A stretch of 22,166 nt of DNA from a virus. The notes under the pieces are model-generated. The model made no database searches. It was given only the letters and a program-made list of their open reading frames with translations, and had not been told where the DNA came from. Below are positions 4,838 to 17,617 of this stretch, piece by piece; position 1 is the first letter of the stretch, and every line of letters starts with the position of its first letter. The DNA lies in the UHGV virus genome UHGV-0117806; one strand, written 5' to 3'. The position numbers and the translations under genes are program-made.

Positions 4838-5268
4838 ATGACATTGCCATACGGGGTAATATCAGATCCCCATTATCATCGTTGGGATGCTTTTGCGACA
4901 ACCCGCCCTACTCCAAAATCACCCCCTGGATAGACGCAGCCATTCGCGAGCAGGCGCGTGGAGTGACGACGGTCATGCTGATACCACAATCCCTCGATAC
5001 GCAGTGGTACGAGCGTGCGGCTGAATGCGCCAACGAAACCGTCATCTTGTCTGGCGGCCGCGTGGCGTTCGTTGAGCCGGATGTTGAACTTGGGCTGGTG
5101 GAGGTGAACATCAACCCTGGTGGCAGCATGTTGCTTATCTTCCGTGGCTACTGTCAGGAAGCTGGGCACACCATCAGCAAGATACCGCTGGCGGTGATGA
5201 AAAAGCTGGGTGGTTATGATCCTGCCAATGTTGTCAGGAAGAAGAGACCACGTAAAAAGGCAGCGTAA
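4838..5268 (+). pseudogene. phage-type N6-adenine DNA methyltransferase (small Dam family), apparently frameshifted/N-terminally truncated
   Basis: Good start (AAGGAA 4825-4830, ATG 4838) opens frame 2 and stops after about 31 codons. The DNPPY catalytic motif and the rest of the domain (…DNPPYSKITPWIDAAIRE…GGRVAFVEPD…) are in frame 1 (track ORF 4882..5268, TTG start, no SD). Confidence 0.5.
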
Positions 5269-5470
5269 ACACCAGTCTGGGAGTTAGTTTGAGAACCTGC
5301 TTCCGTATATATAAATAACTAAGTACTAATTATTAATATATACAGACGCAGGCTTTTTAAGACGTTATTTCCAAACAACTCCCAGACCGTTTTACACCTC
5401 CAGAACCCACTGGAACCCCTCTTCAGACGCTCTAGAATCGATTTTATGAACCACAGTAAGGAAAACTATC

Positions 5471-5701
5471 ATGGTATACCCGACGAACGTCGTAGCGCTC
5501 GTTGAGAGCGATTTTCTGGCCACAGTGCGCGACATGATGAAAGATCGCGATAAGGCTTTCAGTCTCTACGAATGGTCGCTCAGATGTCTTCATTCAGGCG
5601 AGCACAAAGAGCTGGTGGAACAGCTGTTAGGGGAACTCATCAATGAGGTGTTTGCCCTGAACGTCCAGCTTCATGGGCGAGAAATTAATCAATCAATATA
5701 A
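5471..5701 (+). CDS. hypothetical protein (76 aa)
   Basis: AAGGA 5458-5462 then ATG 5471; no family recognised. Confidence 0.6.
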   Translation: MVYPTNVVALVESDFLATVRDMMKDRDKAFSLYEWSLRCLHSGEHKELVEQLLGELINEVFALNVQLHGREINQSI

Positions 5702-6294
5702 TAGGTAAGTACTTACCATTCAAAACGCCACTAACCAGTGATACAATCTATCCGCTTCCGGATACTTTCGGCAGCTCGACCTGATGGGTGGGGGATAGCG
5801 TCACTGGCGTCAGGTTTAAAAAAGCTCACTACCAGCGTAGAACCGGCACCGTTTAGGGGTTGGGGAAGGGGGAACCAAAGTGGGCAGAGAGAAGGGTCAC
5901 TTTATGATTGTCGAGTCTGGAGTGTTTCGAGAGGTTGAATCCAGTACTCCCCTTCATAAAGTGTGGGAAGATCTCGGTTCTGGGGTGCTGTCATCCATAA
6001 CTTCCCAAGCCTAAGCTGGCAGTAGACTTAGGTCATAACTTTTCAGGTTATGAAACGACCAGGTTGGTGAGGAAATTTTGTACTCACCTCACTGGGAGAG
6101 TATTACTTGAAAAGACAACCTCTCACTTCGTTCGAGGTGAACTTCACTCACTTCGTTCGTTCAGTTCAGGTTTTATTAAAACCTGTTCTGGGAAGTAATT
6201 TTTCTTTTCTAAAAAATTTTTAATATTTACACGCACGCGTGCGCACACGCGCGAGGGAAAAAAAATCGTCGCGGCGCGCGATTCTGGAGCCAAA

Positions 6295-6903
6295 ATGACG
6301 ACCAAGAACCCAGTCCGGCAACGCACTGGCTGCCGCACGAAGTCTAAAGCCAGATGCCAAACCCACCAGCATTCCTGTACCAATTTCAACACACCCGTAG
6401 TCGAGTTCAATCCCCAGCTCAAAACCGTAAAAGTATTCAGTGATGGCTCCTGCCTCAAAAATCCGGGCGGGCCGGGCGGTTACGGTATCGTTCTCCAGTA
6501 TCGAGGCGAAGAGCGCGAGCTTTCTGAGGGCTTCCACAGCACGACCAACAATCGGATGGAGATGATGGGCGCCCTGATTGCGCTGGAGCGTCTGAAGTAC
6601 CCCTGCAACGTGATCCTGCATTCCGACAGCCAGTATCTTAAAAACGGCATGACGCTCTGGATGAAAGGCTGGAAGCGTAACGGATGGATCACGTCTGAGA
6701 AGAAGCCAGTCAAAAACGTGGATCTCTGGAAACGTCTCGACGTGGCCGCCAGTCGTCATAATGTCCGCTGGAAGTGGGTTAAAGGCCATGCAGGTCATCG
6801 CGAGAACGAAATGTGTGACCGTCTGGCGAAGATCGCCGCCTATTCCGCAGCTGATATGCCTCACAAGCATGACATTGGGTTTTTGTCACAAAAGTATAAG
6901 TAA
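6295..6903 (+). CDS. rnhA: ribonuclease HI with about 45-aa N-terminal extension
   Basis: RNase HI catalytic-core motifs in canonical order: [40 protein letters not shown] 6286-6289 then ATG 6295; no alternative in-frame start before the core. Confidence 0.85.
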
Positions 6904-6995
6904 GTATTTACCTACTATAATAAATCAGGTATCTTATAAATCGTCAGGATGACGAAGTACCGGTTAGGTACGGTTCCAGGATGGAACGCCAAAAG

Positions 6996-7026
6996 GCGGC
7001 TGGCTTGGCCAGCCGCAACTCTTTCT
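6996..7026 (+). terminator. hairpin terminator after rnhA
   Basis: GCGGCTGGC-ttg-GCCAGCCGC (6996-7016) followed by CTCTTTCT. Confidence 0.5.
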
Positions 7027-7045
7027 GACACTGAATGGAATCCAC

Positions 7046-7546
7046 ATGGCCCGTCAAACGTCTTTCACTTCTTTCAATAAACGTCCCCGTTCAATTCGCC
7101 TGGTGCTGACCGAGCTGTTTAGTGGTCGTGTTTCCGCACGCCTTACGGAACTGGAAGAACGAGTGTTTGAACTGGAGAAGCGCATTAATGTGCAAGCTAC
7201 CGCCATAGCTAATCAGGGCACGACAGTAGGCATGGAGAAGGTGCGTAATAGCGTCGCTTCTCGTGTGTTGCGTGAAACCCGGACACACAAGAACAGTTCT
7301 CATGGAAAATTTTCAACGAAATCGACTGAAGTCAATGGCCTACGGAGTGATTTTGGCAACTCTGGCAGCGGTTACCGTACCAGCCGGTCAGAGCCTTTTG
7401 ATGCCGGGCACAACTACTTCCACTGCCACCACAGCCTTGCAGATGACACCCCTGCCCGAACGACCTCCTGTCTCTCTGGATGGGATGCTGATGGACACGA
7501 TTCCAGCTCGACCTGCGACTCCGGATCTTCCTTCTACAGTGACTGA
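7046..7546 (+). CDS. hypothetical protein; only the first ~70 codons look protein-like
   Basis: ATG 7046 with weak SD; N-terminal part is coiled-coil-like (LTELEERVFELEKRINVQ). From about 7260 this frame becomes Ser/Gly-rich and overlaps 7302..7559 in another frame. Confidence 0.25.
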   Translation: MARQTSFTSFNKRPRSIRLVLTELFSGRVSARLTELEERVFELEKRINVQATAIANQGTTVGMEKVRNSVASRVLRETRTHKNSSHGKFSTKSTEVNGLRSDFGNSGSGYRTSRSEPFDAGHNYFHCHHSLADDTPARTTSCLSGWDADGHDSSSTCDSGSSFYSD

Positions 7547-7559
7547 GGCTATTGTATGA
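7302..7559 (+). CDS. hypothetical Thr/Pro-rich protein with hydrophobic N-terminal segment (85 aa)
   Basis: ATG 7302 (MENFQRNRLKSMAYGVILATLAAVTVPAG…); stop overlaps ATG 7556 of next gene (ATGA). Start uncertain. Confidence 0.4.
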   Translation: MENFQRNRLKSMAYGVILATLAAVTVPAGQSLLMPGTTTSTATTALQMTPLPERPPVSLDGMLMDTIPARPATPDLPSTVTEAIV

Positions 7560-7744
7560 AATGGAACTTCCAGAAATTCACCTTGATGATTGTTGGCTTT
7601 ACCGTTTTTTTGTTTAACGGCTGGATCATGAATCTGGTGAAACTTGTGAACGATGGCGATCTCCAGTCTCATGCCGGAGTGACACTTGCGCGTGTCGTGG
7701 GAGTTTTCATTGTTCCAGTGGGCGGCATCCTCGGGTTCTTTTAA
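7556..7744 (+). CDS. small membrane protein (62 aa)
   Basis: ATG 7556 coupled to upstream ORF; two hydrophobic segments (FTLMIVGFTVFLF, VVGVFIVPVGGILGFF). Confidence 0.5.
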   Translation: MKWNFQKFTLMIVGFTVFLFNGWIMNLVKLVNDGDLQSHAGVTLARVVGVFIVPVGGILGFF

Positions 7745-7779
7745 CCGACGAATAGGGGGGGGCATTAGCCCCTCAATCT

Positions 7780-8739
7780 TCACTCCGGCGCATCCAGCCA
7801 ATTATTAATGGCGTCTATTATTAAGTGTATATCTTCATGGTGATACAGATAAACGTCCAGTTTTTTGGCTGCTTGTCTGGCGTGAGGGGTAAACTCGCTG
7901 TTGCTGACTACTATTGCGAGGGAGCAATCGTAGAACTGTTTCGCGGAAAATGCTTCCTGAATAGCTTTGTTGCCTACTTTAGACTGGTAGTGTTTGCACT
8001 GAACAGCCATTCGAACTTCTCTATAGGTTACAAGGATATCCAGACCGTGATCGCCGCTGCCCTTAGTTACTTGGGTGTCGGATCCATACTTCATAAACTC
8101 CCCAGCGACAAAATGCTCATATTCGTGCCCGGTCAGTAGCGAAGTGTACTCAGGTAATTCAGGTTCTGGTGTATTGTCTACCACCGTCATAATGTGATTT
8201 ATTGCGCAGCGATCAAATTGTTCAGGCAACTGGAATTTAAAGTAAACTGGCCGCCCCCAGGCATTCTTGTCCTCCGACTCTGCCAACCAAAGGTTGTTGA
8301 GCCGGCCTGTGTTCTCTTCGATCCAATCGTAAACTTTCTCTTTTACTACCTTGTCATAAAAGTAGTCTACTTCATCAAACCACTTGTCAAAGTTCCAGAC
8401 CCCGTATTCATCCTGTGTTGTGAGTGTTTTTTCTTTTCTTTTCAAAGTGGTGAGATGCATTTCATAGAACTGAGGTAAAACTTTTATGAGTAGGTATGAA
8501 GTGAAGGCGCTTTGAATAAGCTTCTCTTTGGCTGACTTATAGTAAAAATCGTTACGATCGAACGCGCCGTTTTGCGTGATGTAGCTTCTAACTTCCATAT
8601 TTCGAAAAATGATATTGCGTGTTTTTTCCCATGCTTCATGTAGATCATTTTCAGCAACGAAGCTCATGACTTTCTGATAATGAGACTCCAAGCCCTCCCG
8701 GGCCTTAGTTTCTTCCGTTTTGAAAAGATTACCAAACAT
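7780..8739 (-). CDS. Mrr-like PD-(D/E)xK restriction-endonuclease-fold protein with unrecognised ~200-aa N-terminal domain
   Basis: C-terminal ~110 aa match the Mrr_cat pattern: GHEYEHFVAGEF…GSGDHGLDILV…VQCKHY…AIVVSNSEFTPHARQAA. N-terminal domain has no motif I recognise. Convergent with 7046-7744. Confidence 0.85.
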   Translation of the reverse strand: MFGNLFKTEETKAREGLESHYQKVMSFVAENDLHEAWEKTRNIIFRNMEVRSYITQNGAFDRNDFYYKSAKEKLIQSAFTSYLLIKVLPQFYEMHLTTLKRKEKTLTTQDEYGVWNFDKWFDEVDYFYDKVVKEKVYDWIEENTGRLNNLWLAESEDKNAWGRPVYFKFQLPEQFDRCAINHIMTVVDNTPEPELPEYTSLLTGHEYEHFVAGEFMKYGSDTQVTKGSGDHGLDILVTYREVRMAVQCKHYQSKVGNKAIQEAFSAKQFYDCSLAIVVSNSEFTPHARQAAKKLDVYLYHHEDIHLIIDAINNWLDAPE

Positions 8740-8912
8740 TTTGCTCTCTCTTAGGGACTGACGTCTGAATAGAACTTCGGCAATGAGAACATTCTGCTAT
8801 GAATGCCACTTTAAATAAATGTCTGGTATGCCTGATTTTTCCTTTTGCGTGTCTTTTCGCCTTAATGCAACTCTTCACATCATCATAGAATTTGAGACAA
8901 TTAAACAATTAA

Positions 8913-8930
8913 GAAAACAACTTGTTTAAA
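8913..8930 (+). promoter_or_regulatory. palindromic operator-like motif (AAAACAA-C-TTGTTTAAA) 18 nt upstream of ATG 8948
   Basis: Member of the recurring AAAACAA-N(1-3)-TTGTTT family (see findings). Confidence 0.5.
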
Positions 8931-8947
8931 AGAATAAGGAAGAGCGC

Positions 8948-9526
8948 ATGTGTGAAAAATGCAAAAAAACTAATGCCAAAGTTGAAAGCGTGATTAAAAA
9001 AGTTGGTGCGGCCGAACTGGTTGAGATCATGGGTCTTGTGGTTGGTCACGAAGACGACGCCTCCCCTATTGACCGCCTTTTCAGCGTTCTCAAGTTCTCA
9101 AGCATGATTGATGATCCGATTGAAATTGTGATGCTGGCGCGTCATTTCGGCGAAGCGTATCTGGAAGAGAAAGAACGCGCCGACAAACTTAAGGCAACTC
9201 TGGAAATGGTAAGCAAGCCGAAGTGCTCACCGGATTCAGTCAAGGCAGATGAAACCAACGCCAGCAAAGATCGTGAAATCGCCGGGCTGAAGTCTTCTCT
9301 GGCGATGTTGCTGGCCGCTTTCAAACTGATGTCTTCCCAGGCTGGGTTCAAAATGCCTGAGCTGAACAGCGACGATCCGATGGCCCTTCGCCAGCTGTTG
9401 GGGGCAATGGCCGACCAGCTTGACGACACCAAGAGCCGTCTTGAAGACATGATGCGCGAGCTGACCCATCGCCACGACCTGAACAAACAGCCGCAGCCGC
9501 AAAAGATGCAGCCTTTACATCATTAA
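8948..9526 (+). CDS. hypothetical protein (192 aa)
   Basis: AAGGAAG then ATG 8948; preceded by the palindrome motif; followed by hairpin GGGGC-aaa-GCCCC (9534-9546). Confidence 0.7.
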   Translation: MCEKCKKTNAKVESVIKKVGAAELVEIMGLVVGHEDDASPIDRLFSVLKFSSMIDDPIEIVMLARHFGEAYLEEKERADKLKATLEMVSKPKCSPDSVKADETNASKDREIAGLKSSLAMLLAAFKLMSSQAGFKMPELNSDDPMALRQLLGAMADQLDDTKSRLEDMMRELTHRHDLNKQPQPQKMQPLHH

Positions 9527-9551
9527 TATATATGGGGCAAAGCCCCCTACT

Positions 9552-9971
9552 CTACTTTGCGGCGTCTAACAATAAGCCGCAATTTTCGCTCATGTATGCC
9601 GCAGTTGCCGGATTGCCTCTGTCATTATTCGAATTGTTCATTTCAGGGTGAGCGTCCCAGGCCACTGATTCCTGAGATGATAGATAGACGGCAAAGTCGA
9701 CGATTTCATCATCTCCGGTTTTAACGTTGCCAAGCAATTCATTTGCCTTTCTCCAGTGCTTCAGCGCGAGAATTCTGAACTGTTTTGCATTTTCAGCAGG
9801 CACTGCACTGGATTTGTCTGTGTAGATATTCGATATGTCGGCATAAAGAGCGCATTTAACATAGCTGGTTGCCCTGCCGGTCTCTTTAAAACCTTGCTCT
9901 GTGTTGTTGGCGTAGACATTCACAGCAAAAGCGCTGGCAATTCCCAGCAATATAATTTTCTTCATCATCAT
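9552..9971 (-). CDS. secreted protein with signal peptide (139 aa)
   Basis: N-terminus MMMKKIILLGIASAFAVNVYA is signal-peptide-like; no SD seen and exact start among three ATGs is uncertain. Confidence 0.55.
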   Translation of the reverse strand: MMMKKIILLGIASAFAVNVYANNTEQGFKETGRATSYVKCALYADISNIYTDKSSAVPAENAKQFRILALKHWRKANELLGNVKTGDDEIVDFAVYLSSQESVAWDAHPEMNNSNNDRGNPATAAYMSENCGLLLDAAK

Positions 9972-10096
9972 TACTCAATAAGGAGGCGACAAATATCTTA
10001 CGTGTAGTTGTCAGTTGAGTATTAAGCAAACTCAATAAACTTATAAGTATCTCCCTGTGCAGCTTGTGAATCCTTATTTATTACCTACTCAATTTT

Positions 10097-10130
10097 GAAA
10101 TAATAACACCAACAAAAAAACAATTTGTTT
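10097..10130 (+). promoter_or_regulatory. conserved promoter-operator module (TGaAATAAT extended -10-like box + AAACAATTTGTTT palindrome 10118-10130)
   Basis: gaaATAATAACACCAACAAaaAAACAATTTGTTT, 12 nt upstream of ATG 10143. Confidence 0.55.
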
Positions 10131-10142
10131 AATGGTGCAATC

Positions 10143-11828
10143 ATGAATACAGCCCTTTCCATCATTGACGCTATCACTCCAAACACTGATATCGACTACC
10201 GGCAGGAAATGAACGTTATCCACGAAATTGTGGCCGAGTGCGAGAAAGAGATCGCATTCATGCATCAGGTTCACGACTTCGTTTATGGCGACGAACGCCA
10301 CAGCATGATTAACCGCCTGCTGCGACTCAACCACCGGCCGGATGACGAGCGCACACGCTTTAACAGAGCCTGGTTGGACAAAGTCGACCTGGAATGGGTG
10401 AAACAGAACATCTGGGCTGAATACTGGAAGAAGGTCACGGATATGACCAACGTTCTGCTGATCATGCCAGCATCCCGCCGCGACGAGTGGCGTGAACAGT
10501 TTATCGAGGGCAAGCAGGAAACGATCAAGACTGACAGAACTGGCTATCAAATGAAGGTTAAAGAGTTCGTTGGTGTACCTGAGTTCAAAGCAGAAACGGT
10601 CATACCAACGATGCTTAATTTGCTGAATGACAGGCACAAATATCTCTCTGAGCGCGTGTATGGCTTGTTTAAGGCGTTGAGTCCTGCTCACAAGACCAAT
10701 AAGACGAACGGCTTCAGCGAGCGTCTGATCATCGCCGACTGCATTTCCGATTTCTGGCGGGACAGCGTCAGCGTTAACTACCGGAAAGAGGATTACATAG
10801 ACGACCTGCGCGTCATGTTGCATTTCTTTGCACACAAAGAATTTATCACCATCAACCGCACGGCCGAGATGCTGTCAGCTGCGTATCGAGCAAATGACTG
10901 CCAGACCGGCGACTGGATGAATGTCGACGGAAACCTGATGCGTGTGAAGATGTTTAAGAACGGCAACGTTCACTTTGAAATACATCCTGACGTAGCCTGG
11001 AAGCTGAATGAGGTGCTGGCTTACAGTATGCCTGCAGCAATCCCGGCGCCATGCCGTACTGCACCCAAAACACGGGCACCAAAAGAGTTCGGGTTAATCC
11101 AGAAGACGATCTCCGAGCCGGTTCGTACCGCGCTGCGCAACGGGCGATTCAGCAAAGATAAAGGCGTCTGGTACTTCTCTGATTCCAACCTCCAGAAGTC
11201 GCAGGTGGAAGAGCTTGAGCGCACACTGAACTTCATTGGCGGCGTGCAGGAGAAAAGGCACTGGCAGTTCCCGTATGAGATCGGCCATACGCTCAATACG
11301 ATTGTGGCCACCGGCTTAATACCGGATACAAAATCACACCAGTTCTACCCTACCCCGCGTTTGATAGCGGAGTACGTTGCCAGAGCCATCGAGCTGAAGC
11401 AAGGTGAGAAGCTGCTGGAGCCTGAAGCCGGGCGCGGAGATCTGCTGGCCTGCATCGACGCCAATCCGGAAGACGTTACCTGCATAGAAGTCGCACCTCT
11501 CTTCGCTGATATCCTGCTTGGCAAGGGGTACACAAATACGGTCTGCTGCGACTTCATGAAGTGGTCTGAGGTCAACGCAGGTTATCAGTTCGACAAAATC
11601 GTTATGAACCCGTCCTACTCTCTTGACCGTCACAGAGAGCATACGCTGGCCGCGCTGGAGCATCTTAAAGTCGGCGGGCGACTGGTGGCTGTATTGCCGG
11701 GTGATGCGCCAGTTCTGAACTGGATGTCGCTGGATAATTACGTTTATGCCAAAGGGAAGTCGTTTACTGACGAGTTTGAAGACACCGGAATCACTGTCAG
11801 CGTATACGTTTTCAAACGTGTAAAATGA
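10143..11828 (+). CDS. putative orphan DNA amino-methyltransferase with ~380-aa unrecognised N-terminal region (561 aa)
   Basis: C-terminal motifs in gamma-class order: FYPTP (motif X), LEPEAGRGDLL (motif I, SAM-binding), VCCDF, IVMNPSYS (motif IV variant NPSY). ATG 10143 in frame with track ORF 10125..11828. Confidence 0.8.
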   Translation: MNTALSIIDAITPNTDIDYRQEMNVIHEIVAECEKEIAFMHQVHDFVYGDERHSMINRLLRLNHRPDDERTRFNRAWLDKVDLEWVKQNIWAEYWKKVTDMTNVLLIMPASRRDEWREQFIEGKQETIKTDRTGYQMKVKEFVGVPEFKAETVIPTMLNLLNDRHKYLSERVYGLFKALSPAHKTNKTNGFSERLIIADCISDFWRDSVSVNYRKEDYIDDLRVMLHFFAHKEFITINRTAEMLSAAYRANDCQTGDWMNVDGNLMRVKMFKNGNVHFEIHPDVAWKLNEVLAYSMPAAIPAPCRTAPKTRAPKEFGLIQKTISEPVRTALRNGRFSKDKGVWYFSDSNLQKSQVEELERTLNFIGGVQEKRHWQFPYEIGHTLNTIVATGLIPDTKSHQFYPTPRLIAEYVARAIELKQGEKLLEPEAGRGDLLACIDANPEDVTCIEVAPLFADILLGKGYTNTVCCDFMKWSEVNAGYQFDKIVMNPSYSLDRHREHTLAALEHLKVGGRLVAVLPGDAPVLNWMSLDNYVYAKGKSFTDEFEDTGITVSVYVFKRVK

Positions 11829-11886
11829 TAGGTAAATACTTACCTAATTTATGTAAGAATAGAGCCACTTTATCAGAGGTAAACAC

Positions 11887-12576
11887 ATGAGCGAAAAATC
11901 GAGAATTACATTCGCCAGCGTTGATCAGGCGAAGCTGCCATTTAATTTAGTGCTACAGGGGAATGCAGGCGCGCCTGCCGGAACCATCAAAATCGACAAG
12001 GAGCTTGTGACGTTCGAAGGTAACTTTGATGAATCGGCGCAGGTTTTTATCGACCATCTGGCACGCCGTTGGAGCCAGCAGTGGAGAGACCTTGAGAAAT
12101 GCGCCAATGAGTTTGACCGGTTCATGGACGCAATGGACACAGCAAAAGAGGCTCTGGCTGCCGGCACTCCGTTAGATTTGGAGTCTCTGTTTAAAGGTGA
12201 AATGGCCTCTGCGATGTTCGCAACCATGTTTGCCGGTGAGTTTGTTCGTAGCGGGGCCAGAAACTACCTGGAGCTGGAGTACGACGTTCCTGAAATGGGT
12301 GAGTTTACCGTCACCATTCAACGCAAAGAAGGTAAGACTCCTGGCGAACGTATCGCTGAACTTGAGGCCGTTGTGGATCAGCGTAACGGCGAGTGCGTCC
12401 GTTTGATTAATGAACGTGATGCGCTGCGCGAAGAGCAGCTAAACAAAGGCTCGAACACACGCGCGGCCGCAGACATCTACTTCCAGTTGGTTGAGGAATG
12501 CCAGATCCCGCCAGGTGGCTCTTTGGTCGAGTTCGTTCGCGAATTGCAGGAGAAAGCAGAGAGGTGCGCGGCATGA
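11887..12576 (+). CDS. hypothetical protein (229 aa)
   Basis: ATG 11887, 58 nt after the methyltransferase stop; intergenic near-palindrome AGGTAAATACTTACCT (11830-11845). Confidence 0.7.
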   Translation: MSEKSRITFASVDQAKLPFNLVLQGNAGAPAGTIKIDKELVTFEGNFDESAQVFIDHLARRWSQQWRDLEKCANEFDRFMDAMDTAKEALAAGTPLDLESLFKGEMASAMFATMFAGEFVRSGARNYLELEYDVPEMGEFTVTIQRKEGKTPGERIAELEAVVDQRNGECVRLINERDALREEQLNKGSNTRAAADIYFQLVEECQIPPGGSLVEFVRELQEKAERCAA

Positions 12577-12812
12577 ATGATCTGCTTGTCGAGCGAGTCT
12601 CCGCTTTTGTTAAGTCCCCGCTGAATAATCCCCTCACCCGCGGTGAGCAGATGGAGCTGGCAAGGTGGTTTCTGCGTATCCATGAGCAGATGGAAGTTTT
12701 TAAACAGTTGCCGGATCTGCCCATTACAGACGGCCAAATTCAGTGTGCCACTTCAGTACGGTCGACGATGACAACGACGCAAACCTGCTTTTCGTCAAAT
12801 CCGAAATCATAA
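12573..12812 (+). CDS. hypothetical small protein (79 aa)
   Basis: ATG 12573 overlaps stop of 11887..12576 (ATGA). C-terminal ~20 residues look low-complexity, so a frameshift or shorter product is possible. Confidence 0.45.
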   Translation: MNDLLVERVSAFVKSPLNNPLTRGEQMELARWFLRIHEQMEVFKQLPDLPITDGQIQCATSVRSTMTTTQTCFSSNPKS

Positions 12813-12858
12813 AGTTGCCCAGGGAGAGAGAGAAATCGACGCAGAGCAGGCCCGCAAT

Positions 12859-13074
12859 ATGTGGGACGAGGCAGAAAACGCTGATGACGTAAAAGAAAGT
12901 TGCTGCTGTTTCGGTGTCGGTAACGAACTGCTGAGTCTGTTTGGTGACGATCCGTGGTATGCCGGTTGGCCAACAGTGCCAAACCCCAGATACCAATACC
13001 TAGAACGTATCATGAACGCGGTACGTGATGGGCTGAAAGAGCTTCACAATCAGATGAGAGAAGCAATTGGTTAA
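12859..13074 (+). CDS. hypothetical small protein (71 aa)
   Basis: ATG 12859 with weak SD; frame is open upstream to 12772 without an alternative start. Confidence 0.4.
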   Translation: MWDEAENADDVKESCCCFGVGNELLSLFGDDPWYAGWPTVPNPRYQYLERIMNAVRDGLKELHNQMREAIG

Positions 13075-13112
13075 GTGCTATAGTCAGGCGCTTTTATATT
13101 TATGGAGTGAAT

Positions 13113-13811
13113 ATGAAAAATATCCTACTGGCATCATTGTTGGTGGCATCGCCGGCTGTATTTGCAGCCAGCTTTGACTGCCAAAAGGCTTCGGCAGAAA
13201 TCGAACACAAAATCTGCGATAACGAACGCCTGTCAAAATTAGACGAACAACTTAGCTCTACCTATTCCAACGCACTCAAAGCAAACCCGGGGGACGCAGA
13301 CGCCTTAAAGACGGTTCAGCGTCAATGGGTAAGTATGCGTGGAAAACTCACTGGTGATAAGGCTCTGGAGTTGGCTTATCTAATCCAAATTAATGGCCTC
13401 AAGAGTTTGGATGGTTCGGCCAGCACTGCGGTGGTCAATGAGACACCAAAGCCTGTGCAGAAACAGCCTGAAGTTCAGGAAAAGACAAGCAAGGCAGACA
13501 CAAAGCAGGCTGAGAGCGGTAAAAAGCTAACTCTGGAGTCATTCCGAGCTAAGTATATTGAAGTTGACGGTGAATACTACAGCACGACATCCCTTCCCAG
13601 AGGGAGTTCGTTCTTGTTCACCTGCGCAAGTCGTATCGCAGATGACCAGGTGAATATTTGGAAGAAGGTGGCAGCCAAAGAGGGCAAGATCGATCTCTTC
13701 TTTGAACTTGAGAATCGAATACATACCGCAATGCTGAATGCCAATTTTCAGAAGCTGAATAGTGATTTAACTAAAACAGGCATTTGCGATCTGATTACCG
13801 CTGTTCCGTAA
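13113..13811 (+). CDS. secreted DUF1311 / LprI-like protein (232 aa)
   Basis: GGAG 13104-13107 then ATG 13113; signal peptide MKNILLASLLVASPAVFA; DUF1311-type pattern C-x2-A-x4-E-x2-IC…L-x2-LD…QRQWV. Confidence 0.7.
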   Translation: MKNILLASLLVASPAVFAASFDCQKASAEIEHKICDNERLSKLDEQLSSTYSNALKANPGDADALKTVQRQWVSMRGKLTGDKALELAYLIQINGLKSLDGSASTAVVNETPKPVQKQPEVQEKTSKADTKQAESGKKLTLESFRAKYIEVDGEYYSTTSLPRGSSFLFTCASRIADDQVNIWKKVAAKEGKIDLFFELENRIHTAMLNANFQKLNSDLTKTGICDLITAVP

Positions 13812-17368: not shown

Positions 17369-17398
17369 ACGTTATAGAAACGAAGTGAGGATGAAGAG

Positions 17399-17617
17399 AT
17401 GATTAAGATGCCTGTGACGGTTGAGGTGTGGGGCGTGGATTCCCTGGCTGAGTGTCTGGATGCAGTGGGGCCGGAGTTGTACCGCAAGTTGTGGTCGTTC
17501 GTCCCGGCAGAAGGGGAATCGCCCAAAGGGAAGGATATCTGGCACCTGCTTAGTGAAGATGAAAAGCGGGAGCTGGTGGACGCGGTACACAGCGAGTTCC
17601 CGGACGACGAAGATTAA
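17399..17617 (+). CDS. hypothetical small strongly acidic protein (72 aa)
   Basis: GTGAGG then ATG 17399; about 18 Asp/Glu versus 7 Lys/Arg by my count, ending …EFPDDED. Confidence 0.7.
   Translation: MIKMPVTVEVWGVDSLAECLDAVGPELYRKLWSFVPAEGESPKGKDIWHLLSEDEKRELVDAVHSEFPDDED

Follow-up and report, generated by a model that had tools for sequence, protein, structure and literature searches.

A candidate structured non-coding RNA of about 445 nt upstream of a cargo slot in SSU5-like phage-plasmids

Large RNAs of phages and plasmids

RNAs that exceed 400 nt and have a complex fold supported by covariation are seldom newly found in bacteria or phages, and among the earlier ones several proved to be ribozymes or large assemblies of RNA or ribonucleoprotein. 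The orphan large non-coding RNAs, ROOL, GOLLD, OLE, raiA and HEARO, are several hundred nucleotides long, have many covarying helices and are carried by phages or prophages. Further, their unpaired regions are strongly conserved, and their function is not deducible from context. The RNA that we describe here resembles them in all these respects. However, it is not similar to any of these families in Rfam 15 even at E<=10, its range is very narrow, and its neighbours are not tRNAs but a cargo hotspot and genes of replication and nucleotide metabolism.

Another related system is RNA II of ColE1/pMB1, for which RNase HI is the processing enzyme. Both RNA II and the phage-plasmid RNA, as predicted here, are structured transcripts of about 500 nt with a constitutive-looking promoter, G runs, and a GC-rich end followed by an A run. 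However, the phage-plasmid RNA has neither an antisense RNA I promoter nor sequence homology to RNA II, the phage-plasmid has its own RepA origin, and the RNA appears dispensable for plasmid maintenance.

The c4 RNA of P1 and P7, the CI RNA of P4 and the CA RNA of N15 are phage-plasmid non-coding RNAs that, like the one studied here, precede genes of accessory or antirepressor type. SSU5 has an ant gene about 1.8 kb downstream of the RNA, and this gene is not a conserved neighbour. The RNAs of this type are about 70-90 nt long and have complementary sites in the same operon, while the phage-plasmid RNA is about 445 nt long, shows no such sites and does not match the Rfam C4 family. Finally, CsrB and RsmZ contain tandem hairpins that show one loop sequence, as does the phage-plasmid RNA, and the same loop in several tandem hairpins suggests multivalent binding of one partner. 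Here, however, the motif is UCACUUCGUUC and not GGA, and it occurs only two or three times. By a rough count GGA does not appear to be enriched in the phage-plasmid RNA.

The window analysed here is a stretch of 22,166 nt (UHGV-0117806) from an SSU5-like phage-plasmid. The RNA lies in the interval between a small ORF and rnhA, and the features of this region are the following:

5471 to 5701, plus strand: small ORF of 76 aa (SSU5_089, phrog_5343), the constant upstream neighbour of the RNA
5704 to 5717, no strand: palindrome GGTAAGTACTTACC, abutting the -35 box of the RNA promoter
5719 to 5747, plus strand: sigma-70 promoter TTCAAA-17-TACAAT with an extended -10 (TGnTACAAT), from a promoter scan
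5754 to 5775, plus strand: 5'-terminal hairpin of the predicted transcript, from folding across lineages
5776 to 6199, plus strand: structured RNA core of about 420 nt with at least 14 helices, from conservation and covariation
6121 to 6159, plus strand: loop motif (C)UCACUUCGUUC(G) in two copies (6122-6134 and 6147-6159), each in a conserved hairpin loop
6200 to 6228, plus strand: U-rich tail, then a variable AT-rich spacer (column conservation 0.58)
6228 to 6253, no strand: alternating pyrimidine-purine tract (CA/CG)n, perfectly alternating by direct reading of the sequence
6249 to 6265, plus strand: GCGCGAGGG and A run (6258-6265), the 3' boundary of the conserved module
6266 to 6294, plus strand: GC-rich hairpin ATCGTCGCG-GCG-CGCGAT, Shine-Dalgarno GGAG (6286-6289) and spacer to the rnhA start
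6295 to 6903, plus strand: rnhA, RNase HI of 202 aa (PHROG phrog_531 'Rnase H', E = 4e-75)

The RNA is present in 688 PLSDB plasmids, and in a sensitive blastn search against the 72,556 plasmids of this database SSU5-like replicons were the sole matches. It is carried by 232 of 5,426 complete E. coli genomes, where the matches are on SSU5-like plasmids except in 2 chromosomal places; a host-derived sequence is therefore rejected. The range is restricted to SSU5-like phage-plasmids of Enterobacteriaceae, whose hosts are E. coli, Klebsiella, Salmonella and relatives. There is one copy per genome, and the RNA is a core gene of these phage-plasmids. In some plasmids it has been lost by an IS3-associated deletion, and these plasmids persist, complete and circular. 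A metagenome scan gave three soil matches to a 23-mer, which are chance matches at a ribosome-binding site in GC-rich bacteria, and scanning a genome collection for the pattern CACTTCGTTCG-N-CACTTCGTTCG returned unrelated tandem repeats only.

An Rfam scan, one of the checks proposed with the original prediction, matched no Rfam 15 family at the gathering score over the whole window. At E<=10 the window and a divergent homologue gave only chance matches to miRNA, snoRNA and lncRNA families, which differed between the two. The families covered include ROOL, GOLLD, OLE, HEARO, C4, RNAI, group I/II introns, RNase P and tmRNA, and ARAGORN found neither a tRNA nor a tmRNA. In the 232 E. coli genomes PGAP annotates nothing over the RNA. 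Two public records contain spurious protein-coding genes at its position. In the literature we found no description of the RNA and no expression data for it.

Conservation and fold of the core

The identity of the core is 89-98%, where the third codon positions of the flanking genes are at 48-60%, and few other sequences of the replicon are as strongly constrained as the core. Both the sequence and the pairing of the RNA are under very strong purifying selection. Substitutions specific to a lineage agree with the phylogeny of the flanks, and those in helices compensate each other. Similarity falls to only about 160 bits in a divergent lineage, compared with about 540 bits in close relatives, and the fold is the same. 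Unpaired positions of the core are also very highly conserved. High conservation of unpaired sequence could also mean a DNA-level or co-transcriptional role.

That the interval holds no convincing ORF, as first proposed, is borne out by the homologues. Indels of 1 and 2 nt at about 5930-5938 break the reading frames, so the core is not protein-coding, and the conserved third positions likewise speak against coding potential. The frame at 5738 to 5938 (GTG start, 66 aa), described as the only ORF of the interval, is indeed the sole one of at least 60 aa on the plus strand. However, there are also shorter plus-strand ORFs (5880 to 6014 and 6064 to 6198) and ORFs on the minus strand (6144 to 6458 and 6220 to 6870).

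The plus strand has a folding z-score of -3.4. In the first alignment (A1) 99.7% of the cells in 120 pairs are paired, and 8 pairs are compensatory, a number reached in 0 of 500 shuffles. When the divergent lineage is included (A2), 97.4% of the cells are paired in the 121 predicted pairs. Compensatory double changes are then found in 33 of the 121 pairs (119 cells), against 3-6 in slid controls, and again 0 of 500 shuffles reach this level. The covariance analysis across homologues that had been called for therefore finds the pairings conserved. G-U pairs and exchanges between GU, GC and AU fix the strand, and this places the RNA on the plus strand; compensatory pairing on one strand is what marks a structured non-coding RNA gene. 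Much of the covariation comes from one deep split between two clades, and for this reason some helices have equally compatible alternative pairings, among them those of the CUCAC/GUGGG repeats.

In the modelled architecture a G-rich domain at the 5' side is followed by a multi-branch domain in the centre and by hairpins in tandem at the 3' side, with the following predicted elements:

5778-5793 / 5799-5816, plus strand: H1
5824-5829 / 5880-5885, plus strand: H2, enclosing H3
5843-5850 / 5856-5863, plus strand: H3, inside H2
about 5892-6113, plus strand: central multi-branch domain, to which the next eight entries belong
5898-5907 / 5954-5963, plus strand: H7
5913-5921 / 5940-5949, plus strand: H8-9
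5964-5970 / 6001-6007, plus strand: H11
5983-5987 / 5992-5996, plus strand: H12
6009-6018 / 6023-6033, plus strand: H13
6034-6039 / 6047-6052, plus strand: hairpin
6040-6046 / 6107-6113, plus strand: long-range helix
6059-6071 / 6083-6095, plus strand: H15
6117-6120 / 6135-6138, 6138-6143 / 6163-6168 and 6168-6175 / 6179-6186, plus strand: three 3' hairpins

Two of these stem-loops had been noticed before, CCTAAG/CTTAGG (6010-6015/6027-6032) and CAGGTTTT-ATT-AAAACCTG (6168-6186), and both are kept through compensatory changes. An alternative 3' closing helix, AUAACUUCCCA/UGGGAAGUAAU, was rejected: it is not kept in the divergent lineage, while the local helix H11 is.

The tandem repeat of the original prediction is found as well, reading CTCACTTCGTTCG in both copies. 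The copies are 25 bp apart in the window; the divergent lineage shows a loop of this kind three times (UCACUCCGUUC, UCACAUUCGUUC and CUCACUUCU), at spacings of 19-21 bp. The helix 6138-6143 / 6163-6168 contains 3 compensatory pairs.

Complementarity searches returned no target beyond chance. For exact complementarity of at least 11 nt between the RNA and the same genome we obtained 5 matches, with 2.4 expected, which is at chance level. The only one at a ribosome-binding site is an 11-nt match to the loop motif at 17379-17389, in front of an ORF at 17399-17617. This match is kept in SSU5; it is absent from the divergent lineage and the duplex energies do not exceed the background, so we rejected the ORF as an antisense target.

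Promoter and boundaries of the transcript

The promoter proposed at 5719-5747 is present, with a TG ahead of the -10 box. Across lineages the promoter-like site has 7-9 of 12 hexamer matches, and the TG is found in 12 of 14 representative lineages and also in the divergent one. The position of the promoter is constant, with the -10 ending 26-29 nt ahead of the core, although the spacer sequence has diverged (41-76% identity). All lineages thus have a promoter-like site of their own at a conserved position, as an independent non-coding RNA gene should.

From the extended -10 promoter the transcript is predicted to start at about 5753-5756. Folding of 11 lineages predicts a 5' hairpin in ten of them, with energies between -5 and -17 kcal/mol; for L054, the remaining one, the -10 used was misplaced, and its hairpin, TCCAGTC-GTA-GACTGGA, was recognised by eye. 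The arms are wholly different in sequence: GCT.CCGGA/TTCGG.AGC in the window, CTGGCAGAT/ATCTGCCAG in L016 and GATTTCGA/TCGAAATC in L064. The hairpin is conserved in structure and position, not in sequence. The promoter position, this hairpin and the covarying pairs strongly support the original proposal of a structured or regulatory non-coding RNA made from a good promoter.

The palindrome in front of the promoter exists, one base to the left of where it was first placed (5705-5718). It is one copy of a dispersed motif with the extended consensus ~TGATA-GGTAAGTACTTACC-TATCA. There are seven matches in the window, with 0.39 expected, and sixteen in SSU5 (100 kb scanned, 3300-103299 of the record). 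In the half of SSU5 that was compared with gene coordinates 9 of 9 copies are intergenic, and one copy in the other half lies just after the capsid gene. Since the intergenic motif recurs genome-wide, we rejected the palindrome as a dedicated operator of this promoter and class it as a punctuation hairpin or operator of a general kind, unspecific to the RNA.

At the 3' side no canonical intrinsic terminator was found for the RNA. A U-rich stretch is located 6 nt past the last helix, after GGGAAGUAA, in most lineages, and it is weak in the Klebsiella lineage. In the spacer, from after UUCUGGG (window 6193) to GCGCGAG, an A+T content of 65-85% is kept, while sequence and length are not. The alternation of the tract that follows is kept in the rnhA-bearing lineages though the sequence varies; the tract is longer in L068 and is reduced to a short CGCGCG remnant in the divergent lineage. 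Such a (CA/CG)n tract is Z-DNA-prone, and a short GC hairpin is also possible.

The boundary motif GCGCGAGGG is found 34-63 nt past UUCUGGG in 54 of 83 distinct downstream sequences, and most of the other 29 failed the search anchor (the Klebsiella lineage has ATCTGGG) yet show the motif in alignment A1. It occurs in nearly all lineages, genomes without rnhA also carry it, and L211 has the variant GCGCGAGGCGAAAA. The A run has a length of 3-10 A between genomes and is interrupted in the most divergent lineage (GCGCGAGGCGAAAA or GCGCGAGAAATTT). Further downstream, all rnhA-bearing lineages share an unchanged GCGGCGC. In minus-strand orientation the GC-rich hairpin with T8 resembles an intrinsic terminator.

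Possible roles of the RNA

We see an even chance that the plus strand of the interval is the gene of a discrete structured RNA of about 445 nt, non-coding and not described before, which has a role in its own right, most likely in trans. The RNA would then work beyond being a leader of rnhA, most likely as a scaffold or binding partner. The two or three UCACUUCGUUC loops and other invariant single-stranded segments would be shown to a protein or nucleic acid of the phage or the host, probably during phage-plasmid replication or the early programme, as the gene neighbourhood suggests. The 5' hairpin would protect the transcript, and in the lineage of the window transcription probably also continues into rnhA.

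The small ORF lies 77-108 nt upstream in all tabulated RNA-anchored loci with upstream sequence, the tabulated loci being those without adjacent rnhA and the divergent lineage, and it is also upstream in 65 aligned homologues. SSU5_089 is modelled as a three-helix protein (pLDDT 82). The fold search with this confident model gave no match at E<3, and the protein was rejected as a recognisable RNA-binding partner.

The RNA is conserved independently of the downstream gene. In 39 of 51 RNA-anchored metagenomic loci it adjoins rnhA, whose N-terminal extension (about 43 aa) evolves fast and which is the usual but not an obligate neighbour. In the remaining 12 rnhA is replaced by other cargo (GmrSD, HNH, Tad2-like) with the RNA intact, and in the divergent lineage a Tad2-like or unknown gene is found downstream. 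Distant phage RNase H homologues (147-180 aa) have neither an upstream non-coding gap nor a comparable RNA. The earlier suggestion of a 5' leader of rnhA is therefore insufficient, since there is no obligate linkage to this gene. Read-through is another matter: between the RNA and rnhA the window has no terminator and no separate rnhA promoter, which makes read-through into rnhA still likely.

A broader form of this idea is a cis-acting leader, where the RNA is the 5' part of the downstream mRNA, mostly that of rnhA, and acts on its own transcript or on the polymerase. It could do so by processive antitermination (as HK022 put and EAR), by transcript stabilisation or by sensing a signal for the cargo slot. 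The uninterrupted path into rnhA and the frequent adjacency of this gene fit such a leader. The RNA is also the left edge of a defence/anti-defence cargo hotspot, the conserved module does not end with the RNA but reaches the GCGCGAGG-A-run motif just ahead of the cargo, and replacement cargo is mostly on the plus strand, though sometimes on the opposite one. However, the next gene is convergent in L205, a convergent gene lies within about 500 nt in L206, and the divergent lineage has a sigma-70-like promoter site, matching at 9 of 12 hexamer positions, between the RNA and the cargo gene. Moreover, about 445 nt far exceeds known antiterminator RNAs or riboswitches, and no cis-regulatory family of Rfam was matched. 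We consider a cis-acting leader unlikely.

An origin-like region was also among the original suggestions, and the layout does recall ColE1 RNA II. Rather doubtful, too, is that the RNA is the pre-primer of an R-loop origin like that of ColE1 RNA II. Here, the structured transcript with its G clusters would form a persistent downstream hybrid and be cut by RNase HI at GCGCGAGGG-A-run to prime the leading strand in lytic or amplification replication, the RNase HI being encoded by the phage in most lineages and otherwise by the host. RNA II has its promoter 500-555 nt upstream of a GC-rich/A-run site, and at our locus this distance is about 505 nt (the A run occupies 6258-6265, and the -10 box stops at 5747), which is a likeness in geometry only. 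The local motif ACGCGCGAGGGAAAAAAAA may resemble the ColE1/pMB1 origin, ...ACGCGCAGAAAAAAAGG. There are G clusters (GGGTGGGGG and GGGGTTGGGGAAGGGGG) and a GC skew of up to 0.49, and the RNase HI gene is the usual neighbour. Further, the AT-rich spacer, the GC-rich tract and the polypurine run form the exact 3' boundary of the module, beyond which the sequence varies freely. RNA-primed origins unrelated in sequence to ColE1 exist, for instance in the MRB plasmids (PMC6380287).

Against such an origin, no minus-strand (RNA I-like) promoter within the RNA is conserved across lineages, and the PLSDB search showed no sequence similarity to ColE1-type plasmids. The G tracts sit in covarying RNA helices, and the A run is as short as three A in some genomes, besides being interrupted in the most divergent lineage. 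In SSU5 the GC skew climbs monotonically with gene orientation and has no inflection at the locus, and it was rejected as an origin signal. A RepA-type plasmid origin is already present in these replicons about 18 kb from the RNA, the helicase, primase and polymerase genes are far away, and plasmids without the RNA persist.

It is improbable that the block acts as DNA, be it as iterons beside an AT-rich region for unwinding, as a site of packaging or recombination, or as a single-stranded initiation signal, with the pairing reflecting ssDNA structure. The direct repeats, with an AT-rich stretch and a Z-DNA-prone tract behind them, would suit this, as would the conservation of unpaired positions and the fact that cargo exchange stops at the alternating tract, the left edge of the replacement being within or just past it. 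However, the G-U pairing is strand-specific across about 420 nt, and the repeats are in hairpin loops closed by covarying helices. A position-conserved promoter lies directly upstream, with a 5' hairpin at the predicted transcript start, and a GC-skew signal is absent at the locus.

That the block has no function and seems conserved through recent spread by recombination, phage-plasmids being mosaic and the adjacent region a recombination hotspot, can practically be dismissed, as its substitutions match the phylogeny of the flanks and compensate each other in helices, the divergent lineage with about 160 bits has the same fold, and the promoter and spacer joined to the core show the same degree of divergence as the flanks.

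Phage-plasmids of the SSU5 type are frequent in Enterobacteriaceae of clinical and animal origin and can carry resistance and defence genes. Current annotation misses the RNA despite its constraint, and the RNA, compact and highly conserved as it is, provides a marker of these plasmids. If the primer-origin reading were true, there would be a second, RNA-controlled replication mode for lytic growth or copy-number bursts. In general, the role of the RNA should expose a new layer of phage-plasmid biology, be it replication priming, control of the cargo slot or protein-binding regulation.

Conservation and folding of the interval

The 1.5 kb around the interval has 95.7% identity to Salmonella phage SSU5 and also matches 687 plasmid records from Klebsiella, Escherichia, Enterobacter, Salmonella, Citrobacter and Cronobacter, indicating that the window is part of an SSU5-like phage-plasmid. 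Nearly all matching plasmids are non-mobilizable and about 110 kb; the records inspected are IncFIB. In SSU5 the counterpart lies between the hypothetical gene SSU5_089 and the 'Rnase H' gene SSU5_090, where genes for nucleotide metabolism, replication and accessory functions form a long array on the + strand. The original prediction read 5719-6290 as a possible rnhA leader, regulatory RNA or origin-like region. The elements discussed here are:

5471-5701, ORF089 (SSU5_089), small ORF 5' of the RNA
5704-5717, palindrome GGTAAGTACTTACC
5719-5747, + strand, promoter of the RNA
5754-5775, + strand, 5' hairpin
5776-6199, + strand, RNA core
6295-6903, rnhA (RNase HI gene), 3' of the RNA

Homologues were gathered through RNase H protein matches in viral contigs, and 65 distinct ones were aligned. 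No part of the locus is better conserved than the block 5777-6199: column conservation is 0.93-0.98, compared with 0.80-0.92 in the coding flanks, 0.68-0.72 in the promoter and 5' leader and 0.58 in the AT-rich spacer. In pairwise comparison with the window, the core retains 89-98% identity in lineages whose ORF089 and rnhA third codon positions have dropped to 48-60%. The 1- and 2-base indels at about 5930-5938 disrupt every ORF of the interval and so exclude selection on an encoded protein. The ORF at 5738..5938 had rightly been called not protein-like; it is not the sole ORF, as some shorter and antisense ones exist.

Folding of the + strand is more stable than that of any of 100 shuffles (z = -3.4), and the two named stem-loops and the tandem repeat, a 13-nt direct repeat, are present. 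From 55 distinct sequences RNAalifold predicts 128 pairs. After trimming to 120 pairs, the paired cells amount to 99.7% (38-49% in slid controls), and 8 pairs carry double compensatory changes (63 cells), a level reached by 0 of 500 shuffles. As these sequences are close relatives, deeper homologues were sought, and found via homologues of ORF089 and their contigs: a divergent lineage of Enterobacter and Cronobacter plasmids (L208-L212), whose score against the core profile is about 160 bits, compared with about 540 for close relatives. With this lineage added, double compensatory changes are seen at 33 of 121 pairs (119 cells), and pairing holds in 97.4% of the cells; again 0 of 500 shuffles reach the observed value, and slid controls give 3-6 pairs. 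The covariance comparison thus bears out the predicted pairings, and nearly every helix of the consensus fold is supported. The many G-U pairs and GU/GC/AU exchanges show that the structure is specific to the + strand.

Helix exchanges in the core
ACCUGAUG/CGUCAGGU to GGCAGAUG/CGUCUGCU
GCCUAAG/CUUAGGU to ACCGGGA/UCUCGGU
UGGGAAG/CUUCCCA to AGGAAGG/CCUUCCU
UGAACU/AGUUCA to GAAACC/GGUUUC

The repeated segments CUCAC, GUGGG and CACUGG have alternative pairings equally compatible with both clades; the fine topology is one of several compatible pairings, and pseudoknots or switches are possible.

Promoter and transcript ends

The promoter TTCAAA-17-TACAAT is present as predicted, with a TG upstream of the -10. 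A promoter-like site whose -10 ends 26-29 nt before the core recurs at the same place in the divergent lineage and in 14 representative ones; the TG is kept in all but two lineages, and the sequence between the hexamers has diverged. Directly after the predicted start there is a hairpin that always pairs, with completely different sequence between lineages. This pattern is typical of a protective 5'-terminal stem and, by prediction, of a real transcript start. Together with the conserved core and the compensatory pairs, this supports the reading as a structured non-coding RNA.

No canonical terminator was found after the RNA; in most lineages AAGUAA separates the last helix from a U-rich stretch. 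No separate rnhA promoter was found in the window either, so transcription there probably runs on into rnhA.

The palindrome GGTAAGTACTTACC (extended, approximately TGATA-GGTAAGTACTTACC-TATCA) lies one base from its predicted position, 5705-5718. It is a dispersed intergenic motif, found 7 times in the window where 0.39 would be expected (14 nt each, at 198, 4703, 5704, 6899, 11831, 18625 and 21333) and 16 times in the 100 kb of the SSU5 record that was scanned, once just after the major capsid gene. All sites checked against gene coordinates lie at gene boundaries. The motif could be a hairpin for mRNA punctuation or processing, or else an operator bound by a global regulator.

Distribution and the downstream cargo slot

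Apart from matches at 2 chromosomal places in E. coli, the RNA is confined to SSU5-like replicons, with one copy per genome: 688 plasmids, 12 phage records and 232 of 5,426 complete E. coli genomes. PGAP annotates nothing at its site in those 232 genomes, and no description turned up in the literature library searched. In RNA-anchored loci ORF089 is always 77-108 nt upstream; its model, a three-helix protein, has no fold match and gives no clue to the role of the RNA. Two annotations over the RNA are probably misannotations: the SSU5 'Rnase H' CDS (SSU5_090, L001 8740-9504) starts about 156 nt 5' of the conserved ATG, within the RNA 3' domain, and CYRAN_81 of phage Cyrano (L002 4480-4614) is a 44-aa 'hypothetical protein' inside the core. 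On an Enterobacter plasmid of the divergent lineage (NZ_CP104015.1, L272), 1.9 kb at 11357-13259 has no listed gene; this may be an annotation gap, the PLSDB gene table being incomplete, or another non-coding region.

The RNA is independent of rnhA. Two complete plasmids carry promoter, RNA and spacer at 94-98% identity with different genes following, some of them convergent. Metagenomes were also scanned with a 23-mer within the RNA, an anchor unbiased as to rnhA. Here rnhA is next to the RNA in 39 of the 51 loci with enough sequence; the other 12 have different cargo, often with a C-terminal rnhA remnant 1.6-2.6 kb beyond. The replacements include a GmrSD type IV restriction enzyme, an HNH protein, a Tad2-like anti-Thoeris protein and unknown proteins. 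The RNA of the divergent lineage is followed by a Tad2-like or unknown gene, with a promoter-like site in between. Distant phage RNase H genes (about 46% identity) have no such RNA upstream and are tightly packed against the preceding genes.

The slot 3' of the RNA (window 6228-6903) is a cargo hotspot, with equivalent regions in the homologous records L205, L206, L208-L212, L246, L254, L262, L264, L265 and L269. The left breakpoint of exchange lies at an alternating (CA/CG)n tract or an A run. The conserved module ends 34-63 nt after the RNA in a GCGCGAG(G) motif and an A run of 3 to 10 between genomes, which looks like a slippage polymorphism; cargo replacement begins there. The alternating pyrimidine-purine tract 5' of this motif is found in rnhA-bearing lineages, with a short CGCGCG remnant in the divergent lineage. 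In the window (6228-6265) it is a perfectly alternating, Z-DNA-prone 26 nt, followed by GAGGG and the A run. On the minus strand, an adjacent GC hairpin with T8 resembles an intrinsic terminator facing the RNA gene. The rnhA N-terminal extension (6295-6423; about 43 aa, basic, with Cys and His) evolves fast, with in-frame indels and, in the more distant lineages, 56-72% nucleotide identity. Distant phage homologues of RNase HI, 147-180 aa long, lack the extension, which may bind nucleic acid or form a zinc knuckle.

Alternatives and proposed role

A cis-acting leader or antiterminator for the variable slot would fit the lack of a terminator and the place of the RNA at the hotspot edge, as well as the likely read-through in the window. 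However, the RNA is kept where rnhA has been replaced, some cargo is convergent and promoter-like sites precede cargo genes, so that the rnhA leader is at best an incomplete account.

The RNA can be lost. In the complete circular 119.7-kb Citrobacter plasmid NZ_CP056401.1 (L083 2560-3720) an IS3-family insertion sits right after the -10 of its promoter, and an adjacent deletion has removed the RNA and rnhA. Two viral contigs (L047, L056) lack the equivalent of window 4903-6353: an unrelated insert, about 830 nt long and ending with the same palindrome GGTAAGTACTTACC, has taken the place of the block of methyltransferase, ORF089, RNA and 5' part of rnhA; a second deletion (window 6845-12585) joins the rnhA 3' end to 12586. 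The RNA is thus not needed for plasmid maintenance. This dispensability counts against an origin-like role as a primer of the ColE1 RNA II type, as do the distance to the replisome genes, the variable A run and the absence of a conserved antisense promoter, ColE1 homology and a GC-skew signal. The geometry does fit: the A run is about 505 nt from the promoter, G clusters are present, AT-rich sequence passes into a GC-rich/polypurine boundary, and an RNase HI gene adjoins. RNA-primed origins without sequence relation to ColE1 exist (PMC6380287); the probability of this reading is low. Two further readings, an element acting purely as DNA and a recent sweep by recombination, are unlikely: there is a promoter followed by a 5' hairpin, the pairing is strand-specific, and the compensatory changes are lineage-specific.

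The sequence evidence shows a tightly folded RNA, predicted to be made from a promoter of its own and under selection whatever gene follows it. We favor a model in which it would act in trans as a scaffold or sequestering RNA of the early or replication programme of the phage-plasmid. Its unpaired segments are almost invariant, and a loop motif, UCAC(U/A)(U/C)YCGUUC, is displayed by two consecutive hairpins (three in the divergent lineage); both features suggest binding to a partner, not structure alone. No antisense target was found, complementarity to the rest of the window being at chance level. One candidate, GAAACGAAGTGAG at 17377-17389, lies in the ribosome-binding region of the ORF 17399-17617; 11 of its nucleotides are complementary to the loop motif, and SSU5 retains it despite a different sequence upstream. 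It is absent from the divergent-lineage homologue (L272 13259-13501), and the match is probably due to chance, from Shine-Dalgarno-like composition.

The RNA has no relative in Rfam and is a new family, in size and complexity comparable to the few known orphan large non-coding RNAs. Its carriers are a medically relevant group of phage-plasmids.
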